Part shown: piece after piece, positions 30,098 through 44,349 of the stretch | Layout: each line of letters begins with the position of its first letter | How positions within the stretch are numbered: the first letter of the stretch is position 1 | Origin: Nitrospira sp. | GTDB lineage: Bacteria; Nitrospirota; Nitrospiria; Nitrospirales; Nitrospiraceae | Reading direction: 5' to 3' | NCBI GenBank assembly: GCA_015903945.1 | Contig: JABMDL010000007.1 | Coordinates: 11,653-75,652, forward strand | Length of the DNA stretch: 64,000 nt | The notes under the pieces: model-generated | Database searches by the model: none | Told to the model about the DNA's origin: nothing | What the model saw: the letters and a program-made list of their open reading frames with translations, nothing else | Translations under genes and position numbers: made by a program

Positions 30098-30423
30098 TCA
30101 GCGATGCCGATTGCCTTGCCGGTCGTGTTTCTCGCGCGCAATGTTTCGAGAAGTCCGATCCTGAGCCGCGCTGATCCGAGCCCGTTCCCGTGCAGTGACG
30201 ACTCCGTCAGCCTTTGCCCTATTCTCCATACGATCGATGCGGTTTTGTTGCCGCTCCAGACGCTTGGCCTCTCGCGGATTCAATTGCCCGCTCTCAACTC
30301 CCTGGTCGATCCGCTGTTCTTGATTCATTTGCCGTTGATCGATGACAGGTGTGTCGGCTTGTGCGTATGCAGTTCCCCCGGCTGCCAAAAGTACGCTGCT
30401 CATTGCCAACACTTCTTCATCAT
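30098..30423 (-). CDS. Small exported charged protein (TPVIDQRQ family) whose signal peptide is split by a 1-nt frameshift or preceded by a coupled uORF
   Basis: A GGAGG RBS precedes ATG ATG AAG AAG TGT TGG CAA TGA (30423-30400). The main frame (VLAMSSVLLAAGGTAYAQADTPVIDQRQ..) is offset by 1 nt. Confidence 0.7.
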
Positions 30424-30614
30424 AGGGCCTCCTTAAATCTTGATGTTCTGCTTCCATCTTCGTAGCGGTTGGCAGACCCGGTGTTTCCACATAGCGGCAT
30501 CACTGTTTCCGCACTGTGGCAAATTTAACAGGCAGGTCGGGAATCGTCCATCGTTCGATCAGTTTTCATTGGTGAGACATGAGGGGCAGGTACGGGACGA
30601 ATCACCTGATCCGA

Positions 30615-31559
30615 CTAGTCTCGTCCGTGGCCGGAACGGTCTGGCCGCTCGGAACGCTCCACCCGTTCCGGCTTATCGGGCCGGTCGGCACGTTCCACCT
30701 TGTCGGGACGGTCGATCCGATCCTGACGGTCACTTCCCCCGGACCGGTCTTGTCGATCCGGCCGGTCGCGCCCGGAATCGCTCCGATCGCCACGGCTGCC
30801 TCGATCTCCACGATCGCCACGCTCACCCCGGTCACCGTCTCCGGACCCGCTCCGGTCCTCACGGAACAGCTTGTCGCTGCGTTCACCACGGCTCACCTGT
30901 TCGCGCAGCTGTTGCAGGCTGGCGCGGCCTTCTTCGAAATCCGACCCGCGCCGCTTCACTTCCCGGCCAAGGTCCAGCAGTTCCGAGGCGCGGTAGCCTT
31001 GGCGAATCCCCTCTCCTACCAAGGCGGTCCCTTCCTTGGAAGGAATGCGGCCTTCTTTCATGACCGCCAAACCCTTGGCGCCGGCCGCCAACTCTTCCTG
31101 CGTCGCTTTATGTCGGCCGTCTTGCGACAACCGGCTTAGCTCTCGCACCTCGTCCTTCGTGGCTCCTCGTGCCAAGGCTTCCGCCATCGTCTCCAGCGCG
31201 CGCTGCCGGTTCCCCTCCGTCATGCCACGTGCTTTGGCTTCTTCCAAGACTTCGTGTGCCGCTTCAAGCCGAGAGGTCATCTGCCGCAGCACCGGATCGA
31301 TGCGCTGGGGTTCGACCCCCTTCGCCAGACCTTCCTTCACCTTGTTCAGCAACGATTCGGTGGGAAGCCCCCTCTCTCCGGCCTTGCTGACTTGATCCAG
31401 CAAGGGATTGATCTCGCCCGCCGAGCGGCCTTGCGCTGAGCCGATCCGGTTGACCTCTTCCCGATCGTGAGCGGTGAGGGGTTCGGCTGACGCCGGACCA
31501 GCGGCGACCACCAAGACCCCGCTCAAAACCCACATGGTTAAATCGGTGTGCTTCGTCAT
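30615..31559 (-). CDS. Exported helical protein with C-terminal Asp/Arg-rich repeat tail
   Basis: Signal peptide (MWVLSGVLVVAAGPASA), helical core GLPTESLLNKVKEGLAKGV and a tail of DRP/DRG/ERx triplets. Confidence 0.8.
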   Translation of the reverse strand: MTKHTDLTMWVLSGVLVVAAGPASAEPLTAHDREEVNRIGSAQGRSAGEINPLLDQVSKAGERGLPTESLLNKVKEGLAKGVEPQRIDPVLRQMTSRLEAAHEVLEEAKARGMTEGNRQRALETMAEALARGATKDEVRELSRLSQDGRHKATQEELAAGAKGLAVMKEGRIPSKEGTALVGEGIRQGYRASELLDLGREVKRRGSDFEEGRASLQQLREQVSRGERSDKLFREDRSGSGDGDRGERGDRGDRGSRGDRSDSGRDRPDRQDRSGGSDRQDRIDRPDKVERADRPDKPERVERSERPDRSGHGRD

Positions 31560-31563
31560 TGCT

Positions 31564-31953
31564 CTACCGCACAATCACGACTCCGTTCGTCTGCCCGAAT
31601 CCATCAGTGACAAAATCCTCAGCCAGGGGCGGCGTGACCCACCGAACCCCATCAATCAGATACATGAAGGTGTATTCGCCTTCTTTCAGTGGAACGTCTA
31701 CGGTCCAGAGCGCCGAGCCGTTCACAATTTTCATGGGCGTCGCTCCTTTGGTCCAGCCGTTGAAGGACCCGACGAGAAAGACCTGCTTCGCCCCTGGCGC
31801 GAGCACCGTAAACCGCACACCTCCGGCCGTGGTCTTGGGCACATGCGGTGTGATCACCGGTGATTTGGCACAGGCTCCTAGGCCGCCTGACAGCATGAGC
31901 GCGATAAAGACCGTCCGGCAAAGGCGGCTGGGCCCCTTCAGTCTCATTCCCAT
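31564..31953 (-). CDS. Lipoprotein with glycogen-binding CBM48/AMPK-CBM-like domain
   Basis: Lipobox LGAC; VRFTV..AKQVFLVGSFNGW..WTVDVPLKEGEYTFMYLIDGVRW..DGFGQTNGV. Confidence 0.85.
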   Translation of the reverse strand: MGMRLKGPSRLCRTVFIALMLSGGLGACAKSPVITPHVPKTTAGGVRFTVLAPGAKQVFLVGSFNGWTKGATPMKIVNGSALWTVDVPLKEGEYTFMYLIDGVRWVTPPLAEDFVTDGFGQTNGVVIVR

Positions 31954-32006
31954 GAGCCAGAGAGTACTGAAGCATCAGGCCTGTTGCAAGGAAATCCGAG
32001 TGCACG

Positions 32007-32687
32007 CTAAATCTCCACATCGAGCACCGCATTCTGTGAGCCGAAGCCATCGCCGGTGCCTTCCGCGGCAAGGGGATCGGCGATCCACTGTTTGCCGTCG
32101 ATGACGAACATGTATTCATACCGGCCCGGCCTAAGTGGAAGTGTCACCGTCCACATCCCGCCGTCCGTCCGTTCCAGTTTGGTCTTGGCCGGATTCCATC
32201 CGTTAAAGTCCCCCGCCACCGAAACCGAACGCGCGTCGGGCTGCAAGAGCACCAGGCGGACGAACACGGTCGGCTCCAGCGTGGAGTTGAAGGAGGCCGT
32301 CTGCACCGGCGGAGCCGCCACCGGCACTTCCACGATCCGTTCCGGTCCGAATTGGATTAATCCCGCCACCGCAACCAGGGCAAGGCAGGCCGCCGCCATT
32401 GCCCCGGCAAGGTTCCATTCCAACGTTCGAGGCATCGTGAACAGCGCGCACAGGCGATCCCAGACGCCGGGAGTAACCGGAGCCGTCTGCGCTCTTACCC
32501 GGCGGAGGAACTCAGCTGAAGGAACGATCCTCGGCAACCGCGCCGCTTCCGCGGTTACCAACTCAAGATTGAGCCAGCTCCGGCGCAGCACAGGATCAGC
32601 ATCCACCGCCTTGAGAAACTCCGCCCGCTCCTCCGGCGTCAGCTCACCATCCAAGAATCGTTGCACGAACAGATCCTGATCAGTCAT
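32007..32687 (-). CDS. Membrane anti-sigma factor with periplasmic CBM48/AMPK-CBM-like domain
   Basis: N-terminal anti-sigma helix pair (QRFLDGELTPEERAEF), TM helix LAGAMAAACLALVAVAGLI and C-terminal VSVAGDFNGW..GRYEYMFVIDGKQW..DGFGSQNAV; directly downstream of the ECF sigma. Confidence 0.85.
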   Translation of the reverse strand: MTDQDLFVQRFLDGELTPEERAEFLKAVDADPVLRRSWLNLELVTAEAARLPRIVPSAEFLRRVRAQTAPVTPGVWDRLCALFTMPRTLEWNLAGAMAAACLALVAVAGLIQFGPERIVEVPVAAPPVQTASFNSTLEPTVFVRLVLLQPDARSVSVAGDFNGWNPAKTKLERTDGGMWTVTLPLRPGRYEYMFVIDGKQWIADPLAAEGTGDGFGSQNAVLDVEI

Positions 32688-32710
32688 TGATCCACCCTGC
32701 AGCTTCTGTC

Positions 32711-33292
32711 TTACTTGTTTGGGTCGAGCGCCGCCAGTTCGCGGCTGAGCTGCACTCTCCCCTTGTACACCCGCATTTTTAATGTGTCGCCGCTGACCCC
32801 AAGAATTTCTTCCATCTCCTCATAGCTCAATCCTTCGAGGTGTTTCAGTACGAATGCTTCCCGATACAGAGGCGGTAGCCGCTGAATCGCCTGCTCCAGC
32901 TCCTGAGCGATCTGCTGCTGCGCCAACAAATCTTCCGGCGTTCGCTCTTCCGCAACATGGAGATCGAGCTGGTCGTCTGCATCCACATCGTACTGCCCTT
33001 GCCCCGGCCGTTTGACCCGCAGCCAATCTTTGCACTTGTTGGAGGCGATCCGGTAGAGCCATGTCGAGAACTTCGAATCGGCTCGAAACGTCGGCAGCGC
33101 CTTGAACGCAGCCAGGAACGCCTCTTGAGCCAGGTCTTCCGCTTCAGCCTGGTTGCCGACCATCCGATAGGCCAAGTTGACGATCGTGGATGCATGTCGA
33201 TCGATCAACTGCCCGAATGCCTCCTGATCACGCGCAAGACTGCGCGCCACAAGTTGCGCATCAGTAGGATCGTCAGCCTGGTCCACCGGCAT
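32711..33292 (-). CDS. ECF RNA polymerase sigma factor
   Basis: Region 2 AEDLAQEAFLAAFK..FSTWLYRIASN and region 4 LSYEEMEEILG..TLKMRVYKGR; start MPVDQ at 33292. Confidence 0.93.
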   Translation of the reverse strand: MPVDQADDPTDAQLVARSLARDQEAFGQLIDRHASTIVNLAYRMVGNQAEAEDLAQEAFLAAFKALPTFRADSKFSTWLYRIASNKCKDWLRVKRPGQGQYDVDADDQLDLHVAEERTPEDLLAQQQIAQELEQAIQRLPPLYREAFVLKHLEGLSYEEMEEILGVSGDTLKMRVYKGRVQLSRELAALDPNK

Positions 33293-33355
33293 GGATCTGC
33301 TCCACTTACCCTGGCCCACTACCGATGGACCGTCTGCTTCGGCCTACTTGATTCA

Positions 33356-33384
33356 TTAGACGGATGGCGGGATGGAAGGTAAAC
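33356..33384 (-). promoter_or_regulatory. Putative ECF sigma promoter, copy 1
   Basis: Minus strand GTTTACCTT-N12-CCGTCTAA, 64 nt upstream of the ECF gene; identical arms and spacing at 37333-37361. Confidence 0.7.
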
Positions 33385-33408
33385 AGTCCTAACGGCGCTA
33401 AATAGGGC

Positions 33409-34365
33409 CTAGAATCTGTAGCTGGTGCCCAGCGAAACGACATAGTCCGGTGCGCCGTTTGAAACACCAACCGCCACACCGCCGTTGAACCGCCATTCCG
33501 CTGTAGCTCTGTAGTTGAACGCAAAATAGAAATCTCTGATGTTGACTCGGCCGACACGCGGCGCACGATATTCTTCGAAGTACCCGCTCACCAAGAGATC
33601 CTTCGTGAGATAATAGCCGGCGCCTACGTCATACCAATACTGATCACGCAGCACCAAGCCGTTTGGATTGCCGAGGAAGTTATAGCCTCCATCGAGGAAG
33701 GTAATCCACTTCTGGCCTAGCATTTTAGACAATTCCACCCCATAGCCGTGATCGAATTCACCGGTCCCCAGCCCCAGCTTTTCGTTCGCCGTCGGAAATT
33801 TCATACGGGCCGTGAGGGCAATAAGCGGAACGAAATCCCTTTCCTCGACGGCATAGTACCGTCCCCTCAGAACGATGTCGCCCAGACCGGCGGTCCTCAC
33901 CGTCTGACCGGCTGCGCGTGTGGTCGTTCCGCAAACACGGTCCTTTCCGCTGACATTGGACCCTTTGCCGCTGCAACCGCCGTCGTCAGCCCCTCCGCCG
34001 CCTCCCTGACCGCTGTTTCCTCCATCGTCATCGATCTGAGTCGCGTTTCCACCGACAAGCGTCGCGCGGCCATCGGTGCTGGCCGAGACGAAAGGAATCA
34101 CCAGCGTCACGTCTCCATCCCGAAAGAAACGGCGAAGCGACCATGGCGCATAGACGAACGTGCTGGTGGTGTCTGTGCCGAAATTCCCACTGCTGTAGCT
34201 GGGAGTAAACCCGATTTGCCAATTTTTTTCGGTCGAAGGCCTTTGCTCAGGCCCGATCTTCTCTTTTCCGTCAGCCGCCAGCGCTTGCGTTTGGAGTGTG
34301 GTGATAGACCATAATACAGCACCAATGACGATCCCACAGCGTTTCAAACAGATGTCCATGCTCAT
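33409..34365 (-). CDS. Outer-membrane beta-barrel / transporter-like protein
   Basis: Signal peptide, alternating amphipathic strands, GLGDIVLRGRY, GLGTGEFD and a C-terminal beta-signal ending YRF. Confidence 0.75.
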   Translation of the reverse strand: MSMDICLKRCGIVIGAVLWSITTLQTQALAADGKEKIGPEQRPSTEKNWQIGFTPSYSSGNFGTDTTSTFVYAPWSLRRFFRDGDVTLVIPFVSASTDGRATLVGGNATQIDDDGGNSGQGGGGGADDGGCSGKGSNVSGKDRVCGTTTRAAGQTVRTAGLGDIVLRGRYYAVEERDFVPLIALTARMKFPTANEKLGLGTGEFDHGYGVELSKMLGQKWITFLDGGYNFLGNPNGLVLRDQYWYDVGAGYYLTKDLLVSGYFEEYRAPRVGRVNIRDFYFAFNYRATAEWRFNGGVAVGVSNGAPDYVVSLGTSYRF

Positions 34366-34471
34366 ACTCTCGCTCCTCCTTCGTCTATACCTGATGCGAT
34401 GCGTCCTATGGAACGCAGGGCAAACTTAACGCCGAAAAGACTCCTATTCAACATGTTTGTCTAAGACGGAC

Positions 34472-34511
34472 AGAAGGCAGGATGCCGCCTGTATCAGGCA
34501 TCCTGCCTTCT
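34472..34511. terminator. 15-bp perfect inverted repeat (terminator or mRNA-stabilising hairpin)
   Basis: AGAAGGCAGGATGCC / GGCATCCTGCCTTCT with a 10-nt loop, 30 nt after the 34541-35293 stop. Confidence 0.65.
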
Positions 34512-34540
34512 CAAGTTACCCGCCGGTGAATTGCCGCTTA

Positions 34541-35293
34541 TCAGTTCCGTCCAGATCGTTCCGGTTTGTCCGGTCGCTCAGGCCGATCCGGCCGTTCAGG
34601 ACGATCGGGGCGGTCCGGTCGGTCCGGTCGGTCCGGCCTGTCGGGACGGTCGATTCTTTCCGGCCTGTTCGGTCGGTCCATTTGGACCTCGCGGGCATTC
34701 TCCCGCCCTTCGCGGCCATGTTCTCCGGCGACGCGATCGGCCCGGTCCAGCCCTCTCAGTTCACCGCCGGCATTCGATCGGAGATTTTCGCGGCGATCCT
34801 CACGGCGGTCCATCTGGCGATCCTCCCGCCGATCCTCACGCCGATCGAGCTGACGATCCTCTCTTCGATCTTCCCGTCGGTCAAGTTGCCGATCCTCACG
34901 ACGGTCCTCGCGGCGATCAAGCTGGCGATCTTCGCGCCGATCTTCCTGTCGGTCGAGCCTGCGATCTTCACGCCGGTCCGCCCTTCGATCTTCCTGCCGG
35001 ATGTCATCAGTGACCTGGGCCACGACCGTACGGTCATGGCCATGCCGTCCCCTATGGCCCTGCTCGCCGCCCTCGCGGCCGCTATTCACCGAGCCAGGTC
35101 CACTGTTCATTGAGCCACGTCCGCTATTCAGGGAGCCATGCCCGCTATTGAGCGAACCAGGGCCTCGATTGTCCATACGTACCGGCGGCTCTTCGGCAGG
35201 GCTGCTCATCTGCCCCATCGCAGGTGAGGTCAGCAACGACAGCCCGGCGATCGTCCCCAAGATGATTTCTTTCCAGCTAATACGATTCATCAT
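34541..35293 (-). CDS. Exported low-complexity protein with three repeat blocks
   Basis: Signal peptide, (GSxNSGx)x4, (RREDRREDRQLD)x~6, RGLDRADRVAGEHG and (DRP/ERP)x~12; GAGGAG RBS. Confidence 0.8.
   Translation of the reverse strand: MMNRISWKEIILGTIAGLSLLTSPAMGQMSSPAEEPPVRMDNRGPGSLNSGHGSLNSGRGSMNSGPGSVNSGREGGEQGHRGRHGHDRTVVAQVTDDIRQEDRRADRREDRRLDRQEDRREDRQLDRREDRREDRQLDRREDRREDRQLDRREDRREDRQMDRREDRRENLRSNAGGELRGLDRADRVAGEHGREGRENAREVQMDRPNRPERIDRPDRPDRPDRPDRPDRPERPDRPERPDKPERSGRN
34787..34999 (-). repeat. 36-bp coding tandem repeat (12-aa unit)
   Basis: About 6 units encoding RREDRREDRQLD, with synonymous codon differences between units. Confidence 0.85.
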
Positions 35294-35314
35294 TAATCTC
35301 CTCTTTGTCTTGAA

Positions 35315-35350
35315 GGTGACAGCGAGACCTTATTGTACCTCGCTGTCACC
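35315..35350. terminator. 12-bp perfect inverted repeat between DUF5666 gene and repeat-protein gene
   Basis: GGTGACAGCGAG / CTCGCTGTCACC with a 12-nt loop and no clear T tract. Confidence 0.5.
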
Positions 35351-35361
35351 GATGGGCCTAC

Positions 35362-36833
35362 TTAATCTTCCAACTCCGCCTCTTGCCAAGTCACTGTTGT
35401 ACCGCTCAGCTGCCCCTTAACCTTGACCACAGTCTCATTCTCCCTCACTGTGGCAAAAAAGGCTGCGCGTGTGATTGGAGAGTCATCAGTGCCTTCGAAC
35501 TGAACGCCAGTGGTATTCACAGTGACACCAAGAATCCTGAGGTTCGGATCCGCCTTCACCTGCACTTGGCCTTGGAGAACAACATCGTTATCAGGATCCT
35601 CGACCTTTATACGTGTAGCAATCACGGTGTTGCTCCCACTCAGCCGCCCTCGTACCCGCACATGCAAATTCTCTTGAAGTGGTCCATTATCTATCCTGGG
35701 TTGTTTATTCGTCATAACCGTCACACCTGGCAGTCCCTTGATAGTAAAAGAATCTGGGCCCAGAGCATCAATATCCCCTTCCAAACGCGCACTCTCTTTG
35801 AATTTCACATGTTTCGCGGTTAGGATACTGCCTGACAACCGTCCCTCAACTGACACCTTTGCACCATCAACAATATCGTCAATCGTTCCCTCCCGGAACT
35901 CAGTACTCGCGCTTGTCCGGACTTCCGTCGTTCCAACGAAGAACGTGGCAATTCCGTTTACCACAGATGCCTGTCGTACAAATCCTTCGACCTCAAATTC
36001 GTCCACGTCATTGCCGACACCCCGATTTTCCGGCTCGACTTTTGTCGCAAGCAGGGTGCCTTCAGTCTGTTGATTGGGCCCCGGCGTGAACAGTCCGCCT
36101 TTTACCTCAACGAACAAACCGTTCCAAGCATCGCCATTAGGGCCAGGACTTGGCATATCACTTAGACCAAGTTGTGGTGTGTTCGTGTAGTCCACTATGA
36201 GATTTCCAATTTTGAAGGTCTTCGGCGTAGCGCTATGGTTATGGCCGCTTACATACCCGCGCACCTCTGGTGTGATATTTACCAATTTCTTTTCGATAAA
36301 TGTTGCCTCGATGAGGCCCCCGGGCTGGACGTGACCGTTGACCTCGACATGATCAACCCCCACCTGCAATGTCGCAAGATCGCGATTCGTAATATTGTTG
36401 TCGATAATGGTCGTGCTATCGACAAGCACAGTTTGCCCCATGACTACAAGACTTGATTTGTCTAGAGCCACCGACTGCACCAATCCCTCGACCGCATCCT
36501 TTTGCCGCACTGAGGAGGCCGTATGCTTACTACCAATAAACGACCCATTGACCGTGACCACCATACCCTTCTTAATACCGCAGCTATCGTCCGATCCTTG
36601 AGCAGGCGGACCAATCGTGCATGACGTTTCACCGCTATCGTCCACCTTCACCAGCACATTGTTTGTTTCAAACCTCTTCCCAGTGACAACGTCCCGGAAG
36701 CCGAGGCCGAGCCACTGCCACTGGCTCCACCCGCACTGGCTGAGGCGGATGGCGATCCGTCACTGCACGCGCTCAATAATCCCACGAATCCGACCGCACC
36801 GAGTAGAGTGAACAGAACAGATGAATATCGCAT
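35362..36833 (-). pseudogene. Multi-DUF5666 lipoprotein, frameshifted near 36690
   Basis: The lipoprotein leader MRYSS..LLSAC and Gly/Ser linker ending SGT lie in one frame. VVTGKRFETNN..KKGMVVTVNG and the repeated DUF5666-like domains continue in another frame. Confidence 0.7.
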
Positions 36834-36861
36834 AGCTATACTCCTGTTGTTGAGTTGATGA

Positions 36862-37302
36862 TTAGGATTTCTGGTTTGGACGATCGTCCGGCCGAGCGCT
36901 AGCCGGCTGCGGCGCCTCGCCCAGGACATCCGCCGACCAGCTCACATGCGCGGGGCACCATTGCCAGACACCTAAGGTGATGATTCGCGTGAGCCCGGCG
37001 GGAATACAGGCTGTTCGGTTCATCGTCACCTCGCGGTTGATGACCCTGGTCGATGCCCCGCACCGGTTCAAATAGCGCTCGCCTGAGATCTTGTGCAGAT
37101 CAAAATGGGGGACGATAAAGGCCACGACCGGGACCGGCAGGACCGCAATGGACGAATCGTCCACCCACTCGCCGCCCGAACAATGCCCTTCCACTCCCGC
37201 TGTCCGTTTCACATCGTCACGCACGAGTGATGACGTACAGCCCGATAGCAGCAGCGCCATGGAAAGGATCAGCGCGCCAGTTTTGGTATGGATTCGTTTC
37301 AT
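36862..37302 (-). CDS. Cys-containing lipoprotein of unknown function
   Basis: Lipobox LSGC, GGAGGGG RBS and four further Cys; first gene after ECF promoter copy 2. Confidence 0.75.
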   Translation of the reverse strand: MKRIHTKTGALILSMALLLSGCTSSLVRDDVKRTAGVEGHCSGGEWVDDSSIAVLPVPVVAFIVPHFDLHKISGERYLNRCGASTRVINREVTMNRTACIPAGLTRIITLGVWQWCPAHVSWSADVLGEAPQPASARPDDRPNQKS

Positions 37303-37332
37303 GAGCCCCTCCTTCCAGCCTCGTATGCTGAG

Positions 37333-37361
37333 TTAGACGGAGAGGGCTCTAAAAGGTAAAC
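37333..37361 (-). promoter_or_regulatory. Putative ECF sigma promoter, copy 2
   Basis: Minus strand GTTTACCTT-N12-CCGTCTAA, 31 nt upstream of the 37302 start. Confidence 0.7.
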
Positions 37362-37415: not shown

Positions 37416-38093
37416 TTAGCGGATATCCTGGAAAAACATGCGGGGCAGGACCGGCAGGCGGTATTCCACGTGCAGAATAATCAACAAGACCCGCACGAAA
37501 CTCCGCCAGACACCCATTTTTAAGAACTTGCGCGCGTCAGTCACTACTGGAGGGCTGAGGAGTAGTGGGTTCGTCACCGTAAGCAGTTTCTCGCAGAAGG
37601 CCACATCTTCCAGGATCGGCTGGTCCGGGAAGCCGCCGAGTGACTCAAAGAATGACCGCCTGACAAACAAAGCCTGGTCCCCATAGACAATTCGACTGCG
37701 TGTACAACGAAAGTTATCCAAGCACGAGATCAGTTTCAGTCGCCAATCGTCGCCAGAAAACTGGTGCAGGAACCCTCCGGCTTGAACCGCATGATCCTCT
37801 TCCATGTTGTTTAATCGAAGCAGCGCCCCACCCGGCAACAGCGTATCGGCATGGAGAAAAAGCAACCACTCGCCGCTTGCCTGTGCTGCGCCAGCATTCA
37901 TCTGCGAGGCGCGGCCTTTTGTCGCCATCATGACGTGGACGCCGGCAAACGAGTAAGCGATATCGACAGTTCGATCGCTGCTGCCACCATCGACAACGAT
38001 CACTTCATACTCACCCGACTGCGTGAACAGCGCGTTGAGGGTGCCGGGCAGGGCCTTCTCTTCATTAAAGACCGGAACGATGACGCTGATCAT
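37416..38093 (-). CDS. GT2 glycosyltransferase (TIGR04283-like, rSAM/selenodomain-associated)
   Basis: ISVIVPVFNEE, VVDGGSSDRT, GRASQMNAGA, LFLHADT, YGDQALFV and EDV. Confidence 0.88.
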   Translation of the reverse strand: MISVIVPVFNEEKALPGTLNALFTQSGEYEVIVVDGGSSDRTVDIAYSFAGVHVMMATKGRASQMNAGAAQASGEWLLFLHADTLLPGGALLRLNNMEEDHAVQAGGFLHQFSGDDWRLKLISCLDNFRCTRSRIVYGDQALFVRRSFFESLGGFPDQPILEDVAFCEKLLTVTNPLLLSPPVVTDARKFLKMGVWRSFVRVLLIILHVEYRLPVLPRMFFQDIR

Positions 38094-38725
38094 GCCGAGC
38101 ACCACACCGGCAAGAACGTCCGCACATCGTGAGCCCACGCCGTGGCATCTTCATCGATACTGTCAAGCAGGTCGCCGAGCGCGAGGACCATGGCGTCGGT
38201 CAAGCCGAGGTATTGCTGCGTCCGTTGCCTGAGATCTTCCTCATCGGTTTTGCCCAGCTTGATCGCGCCCCCGATTTGCCGGCGGCCGAAACCATGGTGC
38301 GCTTCTTCCTGCTTGAGCAGGATGCGGCGAAGCGGTCCGAAGGGTGCGGCCCGTTTGACCAACCCCTGCTCAATCCGGGTGAGGATGGCTTCACCCAAAC
38401 CTTCCAGGACGACTTGCTCGGCAAGGAATGTCTCCATCAGATCGCGCCGAGCCAGCGCATCGTCAATAATCCTGCGATACGCTTCCAGGGCAGGAAGGAA
38501 CGGGACATCACAGAGGTGTTTCGGCGCCAGCCAGACAATGGCCCCCTGAAAGACCCGTGCATGCATCGCTTCTTGTTTGGCCTGGCTCAGAAGAAAATGC
38601 CGCGTCCCAGAATCTTCCGCCAAAGCCGCCTGGGCCTTCGCGCAGTCATGGGCCATCCGCTCGCCGTGCTCCAGAAACGTGAGCAACCGGGCCATTGGAA
38701 CCTTCTCGTCAGGACGCACCAGCAT
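38090..38725 (-). CDS. Ferritin-like di-iron four-helix protein
   Basis: E..QEAMH..E..QEEAH ExxH pattern; start MLVRPDE at 38725. Confidence 0.7.
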   Translation of the reverse strand: MLVRPDEKVPMARLLTFLEHGERMAHDCAKAQAALAEDSGTRHFLLSQAKQEAMHARVFQGAIVWLAPKHLCDVPFLPALEAYRRIIDDALARRDLMETFLAEQVVLEGLGEAILTRIEQGLVKRAAPFGPLRRILLKQEEAHHGFGRRQIGGAIKLGKTDEEDLRQRTQQYLGLTDAMVLALGDLLDSIDEDATAWAHDVRTFLPVWCSA

Positions 38726-39509
38726 GGGCAGTCTCCTTTGGTGGAATTCCGTTGAGGCTCCAATCATAGTCGAGAAATTCGACACGATAGCCGGGCTGCG
38801 CCAGTTCCTTCGCCAATACCGGATCATCGACATACCGCGCCACATACGCCAAGATCGATCCAGCCGCAGCGACAAAATCTTCTTCAAACCAGTCAAAGAT
38901 TTTTGAGACTGAAGCAATTCTCTGCTTCCGGTCGAACCGATTCCGCGTGGGATCGTTGATAAAGGCTCTGGCTGCAACATCGAGCTGGCGATCCAGCTGA
39001 TTCGGTTGGTAGGCCCACGGCTGCAGCTTCGGGCACGATGCGGATGCGCAGACGATGGCAAAATGGATCAACGGCTCTTGAAACTGCTTGATCAGGACCT
39101 GCCGCTCGAGGTCATAGAGATTGATGGTGGCCCCGCCGACCCGATAGGTTTGACCGATGAAGTACCGATAACGTCCCACAGAGGTCATCGGCGAATAGTG
39201 ATCGAGAATGCCCTTGATGGAGAACGCATTGTACGCATTGATCCAAAAGGCCAGCCGTTCATTCCGCGTGGCAAAGGTGTTGGGATCAACTCGGTCTAGC
39301 CGAGCCAGATAGGCGTCCACACGCTCGTCTACTTGAATGGCAGGATAGTCGACGACTCCGTCCTTTACATGCGCCTCCAGGACCTTCTCGAACAGCAGAT
39401 GGGAGAACTCCGATGGAGCAATCGGATTGGCCGGCGTGAATCGAGTGGGGACCGTCGAACAGCCCGTCACCACCACCAACATCCCTATCGCACACCACCG
39501 CGTCATCAT
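38709..39509 (-). CDS. DUF547 domain lipoprotein
   Basis: Lipobox VTGC, LAFWINAYNA, IHFAIVCASASCPKL, SKIFDWFEEDF and YDWSLN. Confidence 0.9.
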   Translation of the reverse strand: MMTRWCAIGMLVVVTGCSTVPTRFTPANPIAPSEFSHLLFEKVLEAHVKDGVVDYPAIQVDERVDAYLARLDRVDPNTFATRNERLAFWINAYNAFSIKGILDHYSPMTSVGRYRYFIGQTYRVGGATINLYDLERQVLIKQFQEPLIHFAIVCASASCPKLQPWAYQPNQLDRQLDVAARAFINDPTRNRFDRKQRIASVSKIFDWFEEDFVAAAGSILAYVARYVDDPVLAKELAQPGYRVEFLDYDWSLNGIPPKETAHAGAS

Positions 39510-39519
39510 CCTTCCCTCG

Positions 39520-40578
39520 TTACCATGAGACTGGCGTCCTCCAGGCTTCGATTGGATGGCGCAGCACCGATCCGATCACCCGGCCATCCACTCGGTTGCA
39601 TGAAGACCGATCAGAACAATCCTGGATGCTCTGTCGATCAAAGCGCGCAAGTATTTCACCGAGAGAGCCTTGAAGCAGATTCCCCGAATGAGATAAAGAT
39701 AAACAGGGCGACACATTGCCCGATGCGTCAATGGCGATGCTATACTGCCCTGCATCACACGGCGCGAGCCGTTCTCCCCGCAACCATGACACCGTATCCT
39801 TGGCATACTGCCGAAGATAGCCTGGGGGAATCTCATCGTTCGCCAGCAGTTGTTCAAAGACCATGCTCGCCTGTCGGCGCTCGTACATCAGAGAGGTATC
39901 GTGCTTCCCATAGAGTCCGACATCCCAATGATAAGCGCCGACCACCGGCAAGAGCCCCCTCTTACGGGCGAACCGGACGACATCACCTACGTCATCCCGA
40001 TTGAGCTCGCTCACGATGCAGATCAGAAACTTCGGCGGACGATACCGGTCGAGCAGGTCAAGACCAGCCAGAACTTGCACCAATTGGTCAGCCCCACGAA
40101 TACGCTCATACTTTGTGCGATCCAGCGTGTCGAGGCTGACCGCCAGTGATACCGAAAGAGCCTCGAACCGTTGGACAACATCAGCCGTCAACCTCGTCCC
40201 ATTGGTAATCACGGTCGCGCGAAATCCAATCTGAACCATATCTTCAAGTATGCAAGGCAAATCACGCCGTAACAGCGGTTCACCTCCTTGCACAAACACA
40301 AGGCGCAGCCCATCCTGATAGAGACCACGGAACACCTTCCGGATCTCGTCACGTGTCATCTCGTAGCGACCTTCGTTCAAGGGTAAGTTGCAGTACCCGC
40401 AATCCGAGTTGCACCGCAGATTGGCCTGAAAGATAGCTAATACTGGCCGACGAGTGAGAAGGTTTTTCACCCCGCCGATCACAGCTTGCCCAAGACTCGG
40501 CCTCTGGTCCGTAGAAAGGGCTGCCCTGCCATGTGAGTTGTGCGAGTACTGCCCTGACCGTTCGATCTGAATTAGCAT
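39520..40578 (-). CDS. Radical SAM enzyme with C-terminal SPASM/twitch-like Cys
   Basis: CNSDCGYC, QGGEPLLR, TNG, SLDTL and CDAG..GNVSPC; start at 40578 (GGAG RBS) or GTG at 40638. Confidence 0.9.
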   Translation of the reverse strand: MLIQIERSGQYSHNSHGRAALSTDQRPSLGQAVIGGVKNLLTRRPVLAIFQANLRCNSDCGYCNLPLNEGRYEMTRDEIRKVFRGLYQDGLRLVFVQGGEPLLRRDLPCILEDMVQIGFRATVITNGTRLTADVVQRFEALSVSLAVSLDTLDRTKYERIRGADQLVQVLAGLDLLDRYRPPKFLICIVSELNRDDVGDVVRFARKRGLLPVVGAYHWDVGLYGKHDTSLMYERRQASMVFEQLLANDEIPPGYLRQYAKDTVSWLRGERLAPCDAGQYSIAIDASGNVSPCLSLSHSGNLLQGSLGEILARFDRQSIQDCSDRSSCNRVDGRVIGSVLRHPIEAWRTPVSW

Positions 40579-40721
40579 CAATTGCTCCGCCAGTGGATCA
40601 TCTTGGGCAGAACTGCACACTGTCCGCCAAATTTTCACCCATTGTCAGACTTGTAAATGCCTCAGTCCCTTTCTCAGTCCATAACACATTGATACCTAAG
40701 GACTACCTGACCTGTTAGGTC

Positions 40722-40737
40722 GGGCATATGCCTTGCT
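40722..40737 (+). promoter_or_regulatory. Sigma54 (-24/-12) promoter
   Basis: GG-CATATGCCTT-GC(T), exact GG-N10-GC spacing with TTGC, 48 nt upstream of the 40785 start. Confidence 0.6.
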
Positions 40738-40784
40738 GAACTCTGTTTATTTGGCACAGGTCATTTACACAGAAGGAGGGCGCA

Positions 40785-41183
40785 ATGAACAAGACTCCCC
40801 ATACCTCTTTGACAATCATGATCGCAGCCCTGGCCATGACCATGATGGCCTCCCCTGCGTCAGCTGACAACTCCAAGAAAACCAAGAAATCCGCTTCTCA
40901 TGCCTCTTCCGCCGTTGCAGCCGAAGCAGTCGGCGACGTCCCGGAGGTCGGCTCCGCTCCCATGGCCGGCCATCATGATCAGAAGCCCGGTCCCGCCTGG
41001 AGAACGATCGGCGGAACCGTCAAGCAGATCAAAGGCGATATGTATACCGTCGAAGACTATGAAGGGAACCAGGTTCAACTCTTCGTCGGCCAGGAGACCA
41101 AGAAAATCCGTGGCAACAAGAAGGTTGGCGACACCGTGCGTGCGGAAGTCACGCGGGGTGGCTACGCGAATTCTATCCAGTAA
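40785..41183 (+). CDS. Exported small beta-barrel (OB-fold-like) hypothetical protein
   Basis: Signal peptide ending ASA, AGGAGG RBS and GTVKQIKGDMYTVEDYEG..KKVGDTVRAEV. Confidence 0.75.
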   Translation: MNKTPHTSLTIMIAALAMTMMASPASADNSKKTKKSASHASSAVAAEAVGDVPEVGSAPMAGHHDQKPGPAWRTIGGTVKQIKGDMYTVEDYEGNQVQLFVGQETKKIRGNKKVGDTVRAEVTRGGYANSIQ

Positions 41184-41233
41184 TCTTCTTGATGAGCCCG
41201 CGCTCCCACTCGGTGTTCCACGGAGGTTTCTTC

Positions 41234-41270
41234 GGAGGGCCGGTCCTGCACAGACTGGCCCTCCTTGTTT
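41234..41270 (+). terminator. Rho-independent terminator
   Basis: GGAGGGCCGGTC-N7-GACTGGCCCTCC-TTGTTT. Confidence 0.7.
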
Positions 41271-41282
41271 GTGCAGACAGGG

Positions 41283-42036
41283 CTACGGCGACTTCTTGAG
41301 AAACACGATGTCTCCGTAATAGGCCGTTACCCGTTCCTTTGTATTATCCGTATCAGTCATAATGGCGACTGGCGACCCCGTTGATCAAGGGCGGCTCTTC
41401 GCTGAACGCGCGCTTATAGTCTTCGTAGATGTTGCGGGACTCGTCGGTCCAGATTCCGAGTTTTTGCGGTCCGCTCTCGACGACCACCATTTTGACAAAA
41501 TCCGTATAGGCGTTGTCGATTATCGCGCCCACCGGCGCCTTCCTCTCCCAGACGTAGTTGATTGCGCCGATAGGAATATCTCCGAACAAGACCCGGCCGG
41601 CCTTATATTTGAGTTTTTTCCCCACACTTACCTTGTCCGGATCGTATTCGAACGTGATATAGAGACGGGCCGAATAGTCGTCGCCGTCCTTGCGGGTGAC
41701 ATCGCTGGTCTTGAGCAGATTGTCGACTTTCCATTGCCACCGGACGATAGGAAATTCTTTGGGGTTGATCTTGACCTCTTTGGTCAGCCCGGAGGCGGAC
41801 GCATCGCTGATCGCTTTCACGACGACATGCTCGCCATGTTTCACGAGTTCATACGTCGTCGACTTCGGAATATTTTTGAAGGTCAAAGGCTTCCAGCCTT
41901 GAGGCAGACCAGACCCAGGCTCGTTTGCAGAAAACCTTCCAACCTCGATCACTGTATCCACTTGAGCCCACACCGGCGTAGACCACGATACGGCTCCCAG
42001 TACCAGGAGCACGCGTATCATAAGACTCTTTCTCAT
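41283..42036 (-). pseudogene. DUF3047 domain exported protein, C-terminus frameshifted by a 7-bp duplication
   Basis: WQWKVD, DDYSARLY and INYVW motifs. GTCGCCA is duplicated at 41363-41376. The conserved tail VAIMTDTDNT..AYYGDIVF (stop at 41283) is out of frame. Confidence 0.8.
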
Positions 42037-42037
42037 C

Positions 42038-43612
42038 TTACCGTCTCATCCAGGAAAAGAGTTTCGTGAGCCAGCTCTTCGTTCCCTGTGAGAAGTGGGC
42101 TTTCCGCCAAAGGTTAACAACTTTCCTGTTCACTTCGGCTTGGGTCGGATAGGGATGGATTGTGCCCGCGAGCGTCTTCGCACCGGCGCCGGTTTTCATG
42201 AGCACCGAGAATTCACTAATCATATCACCGGCATGGACCGCCACGATCGTGGCGCCCACGATCGTGTCCGTCCCCTTCTGAACATGAATTCTGGCGAACC
42301 CGTTGTCCTCCCCATCGAGAATCGCACGATCCACTTCGTCGAGCTTATAGGTGTAAGTTTCAACCTCGATGCCCTTTTCCTTCGCGTCCTTCTCATACAG
42401 TCCGACATGCGCGACCTCCGGCTCCGTGAAGGTACACCAGGGCATCGTCAGCGAATCGACGCTGGCATACGCGAGCCCGAAGGGATGCGGAAATAGCGCG
42501 TTCTGGATCACGATTTGCGCCATCGCATCGGCTGCGTGGGTAAACTTGTATCGCGAGCAGATATCGCCGGCCGCGTAAATCTTGGGGTTCGTCGTCTGCA
42601 ATCTGTGATCCACCTTCACTCCGGCCCTGTCATACTCGACCCCGACGGTCTCCAACCCGAGTCCCTCGACATTCGGGGTCCGACCGACGCCGACCAGGAT
42701 CTCGTCGACCGTCACATCGTACTGCCGGCCGTGCGAATCGACCGTGAGTCGCTTGCCGGATTCCGTCTTCTGAACCTTTACATCCTTCCCACAACAGAGC
42801 AGCGTCACGCCATCGCGCAACATCTGCTGCTCGACAATCTCGGCTGCATCGCGATCTTCATTTGGCATGATCCCGTGTTCTGCTTCGACCAGATAGACCT
42901 GACTTCCGAAGCGCGCAAAAGACTGGGCCAGCTCGCAGCCAATGGGGCCAGCACCCATTACGCCGAAACGCCGGGGCAACTCCGTCAGCGAAAAGACCGT
43001 TTCGTTCGTCAAGTAGCCCGCCTCCAGCAACCCAGGAATGGGAGGCACGGAGGCACGCGCACCGCTGCAGATGGCAGCCCGTGCGAAGGTCAGCGTTCGA
43101 TTGCCAGCCGGTCCTTCGACTTGGATCGTGTCAGACCCGGTAAACCGCCCGCTGCCGATGTAGACGTCCACCCCCAAGTTCTTATACCGATGTGCCGAGT
43201 CGTTGTGGCTGATGCGCGCACGCAATTGTCTCATCCGTGCCATCACGGCCCCGAAATCGTACTTCACCCCGGCAGGAATATGCAGGCCGAATTCTGAAGA
43301 TCTTCGGAGATCGGCCCACGCCCGCGCGGCGCGAATGATACCTTTTGACGGAACACACCCGACATTCAAACAGTCGCCGCCCATGAGATGTTTTTCGATC
43401 AACGCCACCTTGGCCCCCAGACTCGCGGCAATGACCGCCGTAATCAGGCCGGCAGTCCCGGCCCCGATGACGACAATATTGTAGCGGCCGGTTGGTTCAG
43501 GATTGACCCAGTCAGCTGGATGCACATTGGCGACCAATTGCTGGTTATGCTCGTCGTTGGGGAGGATCATCGGCTCGTCGTAGCGGTTCATTCCCGTTGT
43601 CCTCTCCGTCAT
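42038..43612 (-). CDS. Pyridine nucleotide-disulfide oxidoreductase (MerA/LpdA-like, no C-terminal Cys-Cys)
   Basis: VIGAGTAG, GGDCLNVGCVPSK, GAGPIGCE, AAGD and IHPYPT; TGATG coupling to the DedA gene. Confidence 0.88.
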   Translation of the reverse strand: MTERTTGMNRYDEPMILPNDEHNQQLVANVHPADWVNPEPTGRYNIVVIGAGTAGLITAVIAASLGAKVALIEKHLMGGDCLNVGCVPSKGIIRAARAWADLRRSSEFGLHIPAGVKYDFGAVMARMRQLRARISHNDSAHRYKNLGVDVYIGSGRFTGSDTIQVEGPAGNRTLTFARAAICSGARASVPPIPGLLEAGYLTNETVFSLTELPRRFGVMGAGPIGCELAQSFARFGSQVYLVEAEHGIMPNEDRDAAEIVEQQMLRDGVTLLCCGKDVKVQKTESGKRLTVDSHGRQYDVTVDEILVGVGRTPNVEGLGLETVGVEYDRAGVKVDHRLQTTNPKIYAAGDICSRYKFTHAADAMAQIVIQNALFPHPFGLAYASVDSLTMPWCTFTEPEVAHVGLYEKDAKEKGIEVETYTYKLDEVDRAILDGEDNGFARIHVQKGTDTIVGATIVAVHAGDMISEFSVLMKTGAGAKTLAGTIHPYPTQAEVNRKVVNLWRKAHFSQGTKSWLTKLFSWMRR

Positions 43613-44349
43613 CACGCCGGCTTTGCCGTGAACTTCTTGTAGACGATGGGAATCAGGGCGAACAGTCCCAACAACACAAAGGCCCCGATCACGTTGGGCG
43701 ACGCAATCTCTTTCAACGTATTGATAGATCCAAGTTGGCGCCCGGCATAGGCATACACGAAGGATCCCGGAATAATCCCAATCGCCGTGGCCCCCGCATA
43801 GGTTCCCACACTGACGCGCGTAAGCCCGGAGACGAGATTGACCACAAAGAACGGGAAGAGTGGGATTAATCTCAGGGTCAGCAAGTAGCTGAATGCATTC
43901 CTGGTGAAGCCCTCCTGCACCGGCCCGATCCACTTGCCGAACTTCTGTTCGACCCAATCGCGCAGCAGATACCGCGCGGCCAGAAATGCCAGCGTGGCAC
44001 CGGTGGTCGCACCCAGATTCACAAAAAGCGTGCCGAAGATCCCGCCGAACAGGAATCCTCCTGCTAGAGTGAGGATCACTGCCCCCGGAAGCGACAAGCC
44101 GGTGACGATGATATAAACCAGGATGAACAGCCCCACGGATGCTGCATAATTTGTCTCGGTAAACGCCAGTAATTGGTCACGATTCTGCTTCAAGGTGTCC
44201 AGCGCAAGATACTGCCCGAGATTGAAGTACAGAAACGCGGCGATGGCGCCAGCGATCGCCGCTGCAATCACGATCTTTCCGATGCTCGATCTGTCTTCCC
44301 GCGCAGATGCCGACGTGTTATTTCCCATAGTAACCTGTTGGCCTATCAT
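43612..44349 (-). CDS. TVP38/TMEM64 (DedA/VTT) family membrane protein
   Basis: LSLPGAVILTLAGGFLFG, GATLAFLAARY and LRLIPLFPF; GGAGG RBS before 44349. Confidence 0.9.
   Translation of the reverse strand: MIGQQVTMGNNTSASAREDRSSIGKIVIAAAIAGAIAAFLYFNLGQYLALDTLKQNRDQLLAFTETNYAASVGLFILVYIIVTGLSLPGAVILTLAGGFLFGGIFGTLFVNLGATTGATLAFLAARYLLRDWVEQKFGKWIGPVQEGFTRNAFSYLLTLRLIPLFPFFVVNLVSGLTRVSVGTYAGATAIGIIPGSFVYAYAGRQLGSINTLKEIASPNVIGAFVLLGLFALIPIVYKKFTAKPA

Follow-up and report, generated by a model that had tools for sequence, protein, structure and literature searches.

Nine open reading frames (ORFs; g1–g9) on the minus strand of a 64,000-nucleotide (nt) stretch of Nitrospira sp. DNA (contig JABMDL010000007.1, positions 11,653 to 75,652; hereafter the window) contain a conserved signaling module built around an extracytoplasmic function (ECF) sigma factor. 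The module is real and represents a variant of ECF/anti-sigma signaling for which no earlier description was found. As read from sequence, its core consists of four genes, encoding (i) the sigma factor (g5), (ii) an anti-sigma factor carrying a CBM48 domain (g6), (iii) a second CBM48 protein (g7) and (iv) a secreted helical-repeat protein (g8, “G8N”), and it occurs in at least seven phyla. What is specific to Nitrospira is a predicted regulon with two promoters, which comprises lipoproteins and charged proteins of the periplasm. On balance, we lean towards regarding the locus as the Nitrospira form of a widespread, uncharacterized four-part envelope-signaling module with a local regulon, which works by means of a protective complex of CBM48 domains.

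The ORF listing of the window places all nine genes head to tail on one strand (30098–37302; Table 1), as described in an earlier sequence-only reading of this DNA. The assembly (2.95 Mb, 116 contigs) is 94% complete, and all named homologs are from Nitrospira. A homolog search detected a full-length g6 ortholog in 15 of the 25 genomes of the GTDB genus, and a genome search found none in other families of the order. In the 14 loci that were fetched, the order g1-g2-g3-g4-g5-g6-g7-g8(-g9) is kept together with both flanking genes (GT2-like upstream, CBS/poly(A)-polymerase-like downstream), and the only variable members are g9 and sometimes g1. Since the same order and the same flanks recur in 15 of the 25 genomes of the genus, the cluster is no chance arrangement. 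The proteins gave no Pfam or NCBIfam match to a glycoside hydrolase or an ABC transporter, which agrees with the earlier reading, and an Rfam scan of the locus gave no match.

Table 1. Features of the ECF locus (positions are those of the window).
Feature	Position	Strand	Description
P1, ECF-type promoter before g1	37333..37361	-	GTTTACC-N15-CGTCTAA; strict motif match
g1, lipoprotein (146 aa)	36862..37302	-	lipobox LSGC plus 4 further Cys (5 in total); no Pfam family
g2, DUF5666-repeat lipoprotein	35362..36832	-	3 repeats, 108 bits, Pfam 3.7e-31; lipobox LSAC
g3, exported repeat protein	34541..35293	-	GSxNSG x4, RREDRREDRQLD x~6, DRP x~12; 47% R+D+E
Hairpin after g3	34472..34511	-	15-bp perfect stem; minimum free energy of the 84-nt stretch folded, -36.1 kcal/mol; z -3.9
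Candidate sigma-70-like promoter of g4	34423..34451	-	TTGAAT-N17-TAAGTT; read from sequence; kept in the three closest loci
g4, outer-membrane beta-barrel protein	33409..34365	-	Phenol_MetA_deg family; Pfam 7.2e-8, 33.2 bits vs cut-off 22
P2, ECF-type promoter before the sigma gene	33356..33384	-	GTTTACC-N15-CGTCTAA; strict motif match
g5, ECF sigma factor	32711..33292	-	Pfam and NCBIfam profiles
g6, anti-sigma factor	32007..32687	-	N-terminal anti-sigma domain, transmembrane helix, CBM48
g7, CBM48 lipoprotein	31564..31953	-	lipobox LGAC, Ala at +2; single CBM48, ~15-aa tether
g8 (G8N), secreted helical-repeat protein	30615..31559	-	signal peptide, ~180-aa domain, disordered Arg/Asp-rich tail
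g9, small exported Arg/Gln/Asp-rich repeat protein	30098..30423	-	31% R+D+E

The distribution of the module was analyzed with a protein search of 1.84 billion representative proteins and a locus scan that used one genome per species and returned 80 loci. Full-length relatives of g6 were recovered by the protein search at 36–54% identity. An ECF sigma gene followed by a gene for an anti-sigma-sized protein ending in CBM48 was present in approximately 28 of the 80 fetched loci; the sigma factor, the anti-sigma::CBM48 protein and G8N, with or without a second CBM48 protein, likewise occur together in about 28. The loci with this core come from Nitrospirota, Gemmatimonadota, Myxococcota, Acidobacteriota, Atribacterota, Spirochaetota and Fibrobacterota. 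No other gene common to them was found, and no homologs of g1–g4 or g9 were detected in the module loci of other phyla. The gene set assumed to be co-conserved is therefore divided: the genes for the sigma factor, the anti-sigma factor, the second CBM48 protein and g8 travel together across phyla, whereas g1–g4 and g9 are confined to this Nitrospira genus. When G8N was used as a marker, 59 of 251 sampled Nitrospirota genomes (22 of 97 genera) and 88 of 151 sampled Gemmatimonadota genomes, the latter often with 2–5 copies, were positive. The module is thus common, being present in more than half of the sampled Gemmatimonadota, in about a quarter of the sampled Nitrospirota and in five further phyla.

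The second CBM48 protein is present in most loci. In Nitrospirota it is a lipoprotein of ~130 aa, and in Gemmatimonadota and Myxococcales a protein of 376–500 aa with a signal peptide, a region of ~300 aa without a Pfam family and a C-terminal CBM48. The ~300-aa region appears to be rich in beta strands and probably lies in the outer membrane. The N-terminal domain of these fused partners was also compared with g4, and the hhalign probability of 0.1% indicated no relationship.

The prediction that g5 encodes an ECF sigma factor was confirmed by profile analysis. The protein contains only the sigma2 and sigma4 regions (Sigma70_r2, 81 bits; Sigma70_r4_2, 55 bits), as is typical of ECF (group 4) members of the sigma-70 family, and matches the ECF profile TIGR02937 above its cut-off (124 vs 42.9 bits). 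Its likely start is an ATG codon (MPVDQ); the ORF itself opens at a GTG (33319). The closest solved relative is SigW of B. subtilis (5wuq; E 9.5e-33). Among the 25 best NCBIfam models, g5 scored below every equivalog cut-off (e.g. SigW, 146 vs 209 bits; TIGR02939 RpoE, 132 vs 236 bits). No publication on the system was found, which is in line with the earlier statement that no characterized regulon of this composition is known. A literature search on CBM48/AMPK1_CBM anti-sigma factors and on Nitrospira ECF/anti-sigma systems yielded nothing relevant, and the main text of the 2021 ECF classification paper mentions neither CBM48, AMPK, glycogen nor Nitrospir*.

Directly downstream of the sigma gene, g6 encodes a protein with a single transmembrane helix (residues ~88–112), which separates the N-terminus from a Pro-rich linker and a periplasmic AMPK-beta-type CBM48 (residues ~140–226). 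This layout agrees with the proposed architecture of an anti-sigma factor with a transmembrane helix and an extracytoplasmic CBM48, with AMPK1_CBM and CBM_48 matches above cut-off and weaker profile matches at the N-terminus: zf-HC2 (E 0.006; 17 vs 22 bits) and NF052375 (E 1.5e-6; 28 vs 100 bits). The HxxxCxxC zinc motif is absent from g6 and from its Nitrospira homologs. It is present in the Atribacterota homolog, which was linked to g6 by iterative search and shows a significant zf-HC2 match (2e-9, 37.8 bits). Homologs with the same architecture as g6 occur in other phyla, and no solved relative of its anti-sigma domain was found by sequence. Among the Pfam matches of the nine proteins (E ≤ 0.1) there were no FecR, RseA_N, RseA_C or RseB/MucB domains, and no RsgI N-terminal domain or sigma-I-type sigma factor. 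The intramembrane protease RseP is encoded in the genome (340 bits). A 231-aa protein (P0134), in which a Nitrospira-type anti-sigma N-terminus and transmembrane helix are joined to a GlgB-like CBM48, was also observed; this could result from chimeric assembly or from natural swapping of domains.

Both CBM48 domains of the locus scored above the gathering thresholds of AMPK1_CBM and CBM_48 (40.2 and 39.9 bits for g6; 36.8 and 39.7 bits for g7). The g7 domain is ~42% identical to that of g6, and g7 is always adjacent to g6 in the genus; with its lipobox and one CBM48, it is the predicted lipoprotein made of the same domain as the anti-sigma factor. Domain content and co-conservation across phyla thus support the central proposal of the sequence-only reading, i.e. 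an ECF sigma/anti-sigma system centered on a pair of extracytoplasmic CBM48 domains. Among proteins of solved structure, AMPK-beta CBMs, a pullulanase CBM and GlgB are the nearest in sequence. In a domain tree, the domains group by their anti-sigma or partner label (none of 500 shuffles was as low), and the Gemmatimonadota fused partners form a clade of their own.

For analysis of the putative binding face, 26 anti-sigma and 23 partner CBM48 domains were aligned with AMPK-beta1 bound to cyclodextrin (1z0n). The equivalent of W100 is kept in 26/26 anti-sigma and 22/23 partner domains, that of W133 in 22/26 and 21/23, and that of G147 in 25/26 and 19/23, respectively. At the L146 position, Phe or Tyr was found in 24 of the 26 anti-sigma and 18 of the 23 partner domains, and N150 is kept in 18 and 6 of them. 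The equivalent of K126 is Lys in none of the 49 domains, being Met in Nitrospira and Ala, Ser or Met elsewhere. In AMPK-beta1, the K126Q substitution abolishes glycogen binding (mutational data summarized in PMC6274970). Because the Trp pair is kept and K126 is never Lys, the alignment suggests that a putative two-Trp binding face is under selection, with a chemistry unlike that of glycogen binders. No glucan-handling enzymes linked to the module were found in any phylum (~28 loci). The proposed sensing of an alpha-glucan was consequently not borne out. The remark that a carbohydrate sensor would be unexpected in a chemolithoautotroph also carries little weight: the genome encodes a full-length branching enzyme, GlgB (948 bits), so that alpha-glucans are nothing unusual for this autotroph, and heterotrophic phyla commonly carry the module.

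The protein search also returned very many proteins with 3–18 tandem copies of the g6 subtype of CBM48. Such arrays, with up to 18 matched stretches, were seen in proteins of 1,400–6,200 aa (P0121, P0132, P0215 and others). These secreted repeat proteins form an extensive family that is unexplored.

The fourth core protein, g8, matches no Pfam or NCBIfam family and represents a new one. An iterative search identified homologs of its N-terminal ~200 residues in 29 loci; in every case the gene lies just downstream of the anti-sigma gene and in the same orientation. The domain carries the motif GLPxxPLxxKxxEGxAKGV, and AlphaFold predicted with confidence an all-helical repeat (means of 10-residue blocks 93–98 over residues 31–200). 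A fold search of the PDB found nothing natural that is alike (best E 0.064), the top matches being designed helical repeats. The tail is disordered and lineage-specific, Arg/Asp-rich in Nitrospira and Pro/Gly-rich elsewhere. The description of three exported Arg/Asp-rich proteins in the locus thus fits g3, g9 and the tail of g8 (34% R+D+E for the whole protein), but the conserved part of g8 is the helical-repeat domain.

Analysis of the upstream regions revealed that the locus contains two copies of an ECF-type promoter (P1 and P2), and these are the only two strict matches to GTTTACC-N15-CGTCTAA in the 2.95-Mb genome. All 13 related loci that extend as far as these genes retain P1 before g1 (or g2). 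P2 is kept as GTT(T/G)AC-N16-CGTCTAA in 13 of 14 related loci, the remaining one (L016) having the degenerate form GTTTTC-N16-CGTCTCA. The leader between the CGTCTAA of P2 and the ATG of the sigma gene (33293–33355) has a fixed length of ~73 nt and a conserved sequence across the genus. No conserved structure of this leader is supported, since the consensus fold amounts to -1.3 kcal/mol with one compensatory pair.

A relaxed motif (GTTKAC-N16-CGTCTAA), for which ~0.2 chance matches per genome are expected, was then searched in 26 genomes with the reversed motif as a control. It gave 30 matches in 11 genomes, compared with 0 in every genome for the control. Each of the ten same-genus genomes with the system has 2–4 matches, and only one of the sixteen genomes without it (six from the same genus and ten from other genera) has a match, a single one (genome G012). 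Of the ~11 matches outside the cluster, 8 are located 28–46 nt upstream of the start codons of exported proteins. The genes concerned include a g1 paralog in four genomes (L107, L108, L109 and L114) and a 199-aa exported, beta-barrel-like protein in three (L111, L115 and L118), both with the motif 31–46 nt upstream, as well as a DUF5666 lipoprotein on other contigs. By tblastn, neither the g1 paralog nor the 199-aa protein was found in the present genome (G000). Its third relaxed match (contig C80:49875-49903) lies outside the window with no ORF close by, ~540 nt upstream of ORFs that, to judge from their translations, encode a pyridoxal phosphate-dependent acyltransferase-like (KBL/SPT-type) protein and a KpsE/Wzz-like polysaccharide-export protein. 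This match may be due to chance or may reflect a long leader.

Since the motif precedes the sigma gene, the g1 operon and, in relatives, exported envelope proteins, it is most likely that the sigma factor activates its own operon and a small regulon of envelope proteins. The earlier proposal of autoregulation with induction of envelope proteins thus appears to hold for P1, P2 and the putative exported targets in relatives, but not for g4, which is preceded by a sigma-70-like promoter candidate instead of the ECF motif. This promoter is tentative because a consensus scan did not score it. The hairpin after g3 is conserved in position among relatives and is a probable terminator dividing two operons; a simple terminator scan missed it because its T-run is weak. 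The same scan detected no terminator between g4 and the sigma gene. With the same promoter type at P1 and P2, and before the g1 paralog and the 199-aa protein in relatives, the predicted output comprises the components of the system as well as a few lipoproteins, an outer-membrane protein and periplasmic proteins of high charge. In six Gemmatimonadota loci (L035, L038, L047, L049, L056 and L059), a recurrent element, TGTGAC(G) with GGTTA or CGTC ~16 nt after it, was noticed by eye upstream of the sigma genes; it is possibly a phylum-specific form of the autoregulatory promoter.

The remaining genes are specific to the genus. The homologs of g1 that were found are all from Nitrospira, and they are labeled YceK-like in some JGI records; the predicted Cys-rich lipoprotein is confirmed by its lipobox and five Cys residues. 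The translations of g1, g2 and g7 show signal peptides that end in a lipobox of the form [LVI][ASTG][GA]C, and no Asp occupies position +2. The DUF5666 lipoprotein was likewise identified correctly, but a three-frame comparison with intact orthologs showed that the g2 ORF is split by an apparent 1-nt frameshift near 36712, with 7 codons missing. In the affected region (36700–36760), ...SASGT|VVTGKRFET is read in two frames and the codons for FGSIIVN of the orthologs are missing. The start of g9 (30401–30423) also contains an apparent 1-nt frameshift, which places MMKK out of frame with VLAMSS..., and this gene is variably present in the genus, being missing from several orthologous loci. The two frameshifts, within 7 kb, may be assembly errors or real gene decay.

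The predicted beta-barrel outer-membrane protein is g4, with its above-threshold match to Phenol_MetA_deg, a signal peptide, a Gly/Asp-rich loop and a C-terminal ...SYRF; in the genus it is always located directly upstream of the sigma gene. Orthologs of g3 are present in the genus, and the C-terminal (D/E)RP(D/E)R tail of this protein resembles that of g8. Repeats of the same kind thus form the tails of two otherwise unrelated proteins (g3, 34541–34680; g8, 30615–30760), which close with ...ERSGRN and ...DRSGHGRD and may have a binding or targeting role in common. Directly upstream of the locus, beyond P1, a GT2/radical-SAM/DUF547 cluster (37416–44349) is syntenic with it in most relatives.

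The mechanism that we favor starts from sequestration. At rest, the anti-sigma factor g6 would keep the sigma factor g5 at the inner membrane, and its CBM48 would be protected in the periplasm by forming a complex, through the conserved two-Trp face, with the CBM48 anchored in the outer membrane, with G8N or with both. The contact could be direct, or a polymeric ligand in the envelope or the disordered tails could mediate it; a bridging third component or polymer is plausible because the tethers are short (~28 residues on g6, ~15 on g7). A change in the envelope would break the complex and open the anti-sigma factor to a site-1 cut, RseP would then cut it within the membrane, and the freed sigma factor would transcribe from P1 and P2. 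SigW is controlled by proteolysis of RsiW. Sequestration and release by regulated proteolysis are suggested because SigW is the closest solved sigma factor, RseP is present and the Atribacterota homolog has a bona fide zf-HC2 domain. We think that the signal is the state of the cell envelope, not a nutrient glucan.

Several observations weigh against this mechanism. Binding of g5 by g6 is deduced solely from gene position, topology and weak profile matches, and the zf-HC2 match of g6 itself is marginal, with the zinc motif lacking. The contacts between the two CBM48 domains, or with G8N, are hypothetical, and the conserved Trp pair is equally well compatible with direct glycan binding. In the domain tree, g7 takes a poorly placed position among the anti-sigma-type CBM48 domains, apart from the Gemmatimonadota fused partners. 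For a Myxococcales fused partner (11-row alignment), AlphaFold was confident for the CBM48 only; the N-terminal ~320 residues contain long predicted strands, and the barrel is unconfirmed because pLDDT (the per-residue model confidence) is <50. Finally, G012, a genome of the same genus, has the promoter before a g1 paralog and no detectable anti-sigma/CBM48 module; either the module lies in the 6% that this assembly lacks or the motif is read by a different sigma factor.

The most serious alternative is that the anti-sigma CBM48 senses a glycan directly. The domain would bind a soluble or polymeric periplasmic glycan (e.g. maltodextrin or another alpha-glucan, exopolysaccharide made by the organism itself, or strands of peptidoglycan), and its occupancy, in competition with the lipoprotein CBM48, would trigger or block proteolysis of the anti-sigma factor. 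The above-threshold domain matches, the nature of the closest solved relatives, the conservation of the W100, W133, L146 (as Phe/Tyr) and G147 equivalents, with N150 in most anti-sigma domains, the glycogen-type glucans that the genome makes by means of GlgB and the multi-copy arrays, reminiscent of polysaccharide binders, are all consistent with this explanation. CBM-bearing anti-sigma factors also have a precedent in RsgI (PMC10328401, PMC4711584), whose proteolysis is governed by polysaccharide binding. However, the Lys whose replacement abolishes glycogen binding in AMPK-beta1 is absent throughout, N150 is mostly lost in the partner domains, none of the ~28 loci has a linked glycoside hydrolase, glucan synthase or sugar transporter, and the predicted regulon lacks carbohydrate enzymes. 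In addition, we know of no periplasmic alpha-glucan common to all these phyla. A glucan sensor is thus possible but not favored, and direct glycan sensing in general appears less likely than the protective complex.

It is improbable that the CBM48 domains are only anchors or spacers (e.g. on the cell wall), with the sigma factor being set by the sigma-70-type promoter upstream of g4 or by a cytoplasmic cue acting on the anti-sigma domain. The loss from g6 of the zinc motif that other family members keep, and the separate promoter candidate of g4 with no terminator detected before the sigma gene, would fit such an arrangement, but two CBM48 proteins and G8N have been kept beside the sigma gene across phyla despite complete turnover of the other neighbors, and the surface Trp residues are strongly conserved. 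Even less credible, to the point of being very unlikely, is the view that the nine genes are mere neighbors without a common function: g1–g4 and g9 are indeed missing from the module in other phyla, but a shared and otherwise very rare promoter motif joins the two operons, and synteny is fixed across the genus.

A more speculative reading, to which we assign a low probability, is that the module acts as a two-sided periplasmic gauge. An inner-membrane CBM48 reader and a paralogous outer-membrane reader (a lipoprotein or the end of a barrel) would grip one envelope polymer via their two-Trp faces, or each other via G8N, and loss of the bridge would report wall damage or a changed spacing of wall and outer membrane to the ECF sigma factor. 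To our knowledge, no glycan other than peptidoglycan is shared by all of these diderm phyla. If true, such a gauge would constitute a TonB-independent trans-envelope signaling route in at least seven phyla that has not been described before.

Bacteria rely heavily on ECF sigma/anti-sigma pairs for signal transduction, but for most groups the sensed signal has not been established. The present module brings to this field a helical-repeat family without a Pfam model or solved fold, and a eukaryote-style glycogen-binding module placed in the periplasm, on both membranes. In Nitrospira, the key nitrite oxidizer of soils and wastewater plants, the module seems to govern a compact group of envelope proteins and highly charged periplasmic proteins, which could bear on aggregation, matrix formation or stress tolerance. 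The GTTKAC-N16-CGTCTAA motif is simple and very specific, which makes the regulon directly testable, and the sigma factor, anti-sigma factor and promoter could serve as an orthogonal regulatory part.

Comparison with known systems revealed partial similarities to several of them. The module resembles SigW-RsiW of B. subtilis in its sigma factor (closest solved structure and best NCBIfam model), in the single-pass anti-sigma factor encoded directly after the sigma gene, in a promoter for autoregulation whose -10 element contains CGT(C/A) and in an envelope-type regulon. It differs in that g5 scores far below the SigW equivalog cut-off, the extracytoplasmic domain of g6 is a CBM48 and not the RsiW domain, two further dedicated partners (the CBM48 lipoprotein and G8N) are present, and the organism is a diderm. 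As in sigmaE-RseA-RseB of E. coli, the sigma and anti-sigma factors are followed by a periplasmic partner that could protect the anti-sigma factor, the output consists of envelope proteins and RseP is present. In contrast to that system, there is no RseA_N, RseA_C or RseB/MucB match, the RpoE equivalog score is too low, and a CBM48 lipoprotein and a helical-repeat protein take the place of the partners.

The SigI-RsgI polysaccharide sensors of Clostridium thermocellum (PMC10328401, PMC6582324, PMC4711584) also have an anti-sigma factor that bears a carbohydrate-binding-type module outside the cytoplasm, and signaling by proteolysis ending with RseP, which we infer for the present module, would be a further likeness. 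However, SigI is not an ECF sigma factor, no RsgI_N or SEAL-type autoproteolytic domain is present here, and RsgI systems control glycoside hydrolases, none of which are linked to this module, in monoderm Firmicutes as opposed to diderm phyla. FecI-FecR-FecA cell-surface signaling has a comparable topology, in which a protein anchored in the outer membrane offers a small periplasmic domain to that of an anti-sigma factor in the inner membrane, but the present module has no FecR domain, TonB-dependent transducer, TonB or iron link, and its outer partner in Nitrospira is a lipoprotein. Finally, the CBM48 domains belong to the same Pfam families as the AMPK-beta and SEX4-type modules, and their FNxW and GxW Trp residues and GFGxxN loop align with W100, W133 and L146–N150, respectively. 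Unlike these modules, they are periplasmic, membrane-tethered and encoded in a signaling operon, Lys126 is replaced and carbohydrate binding is putative.

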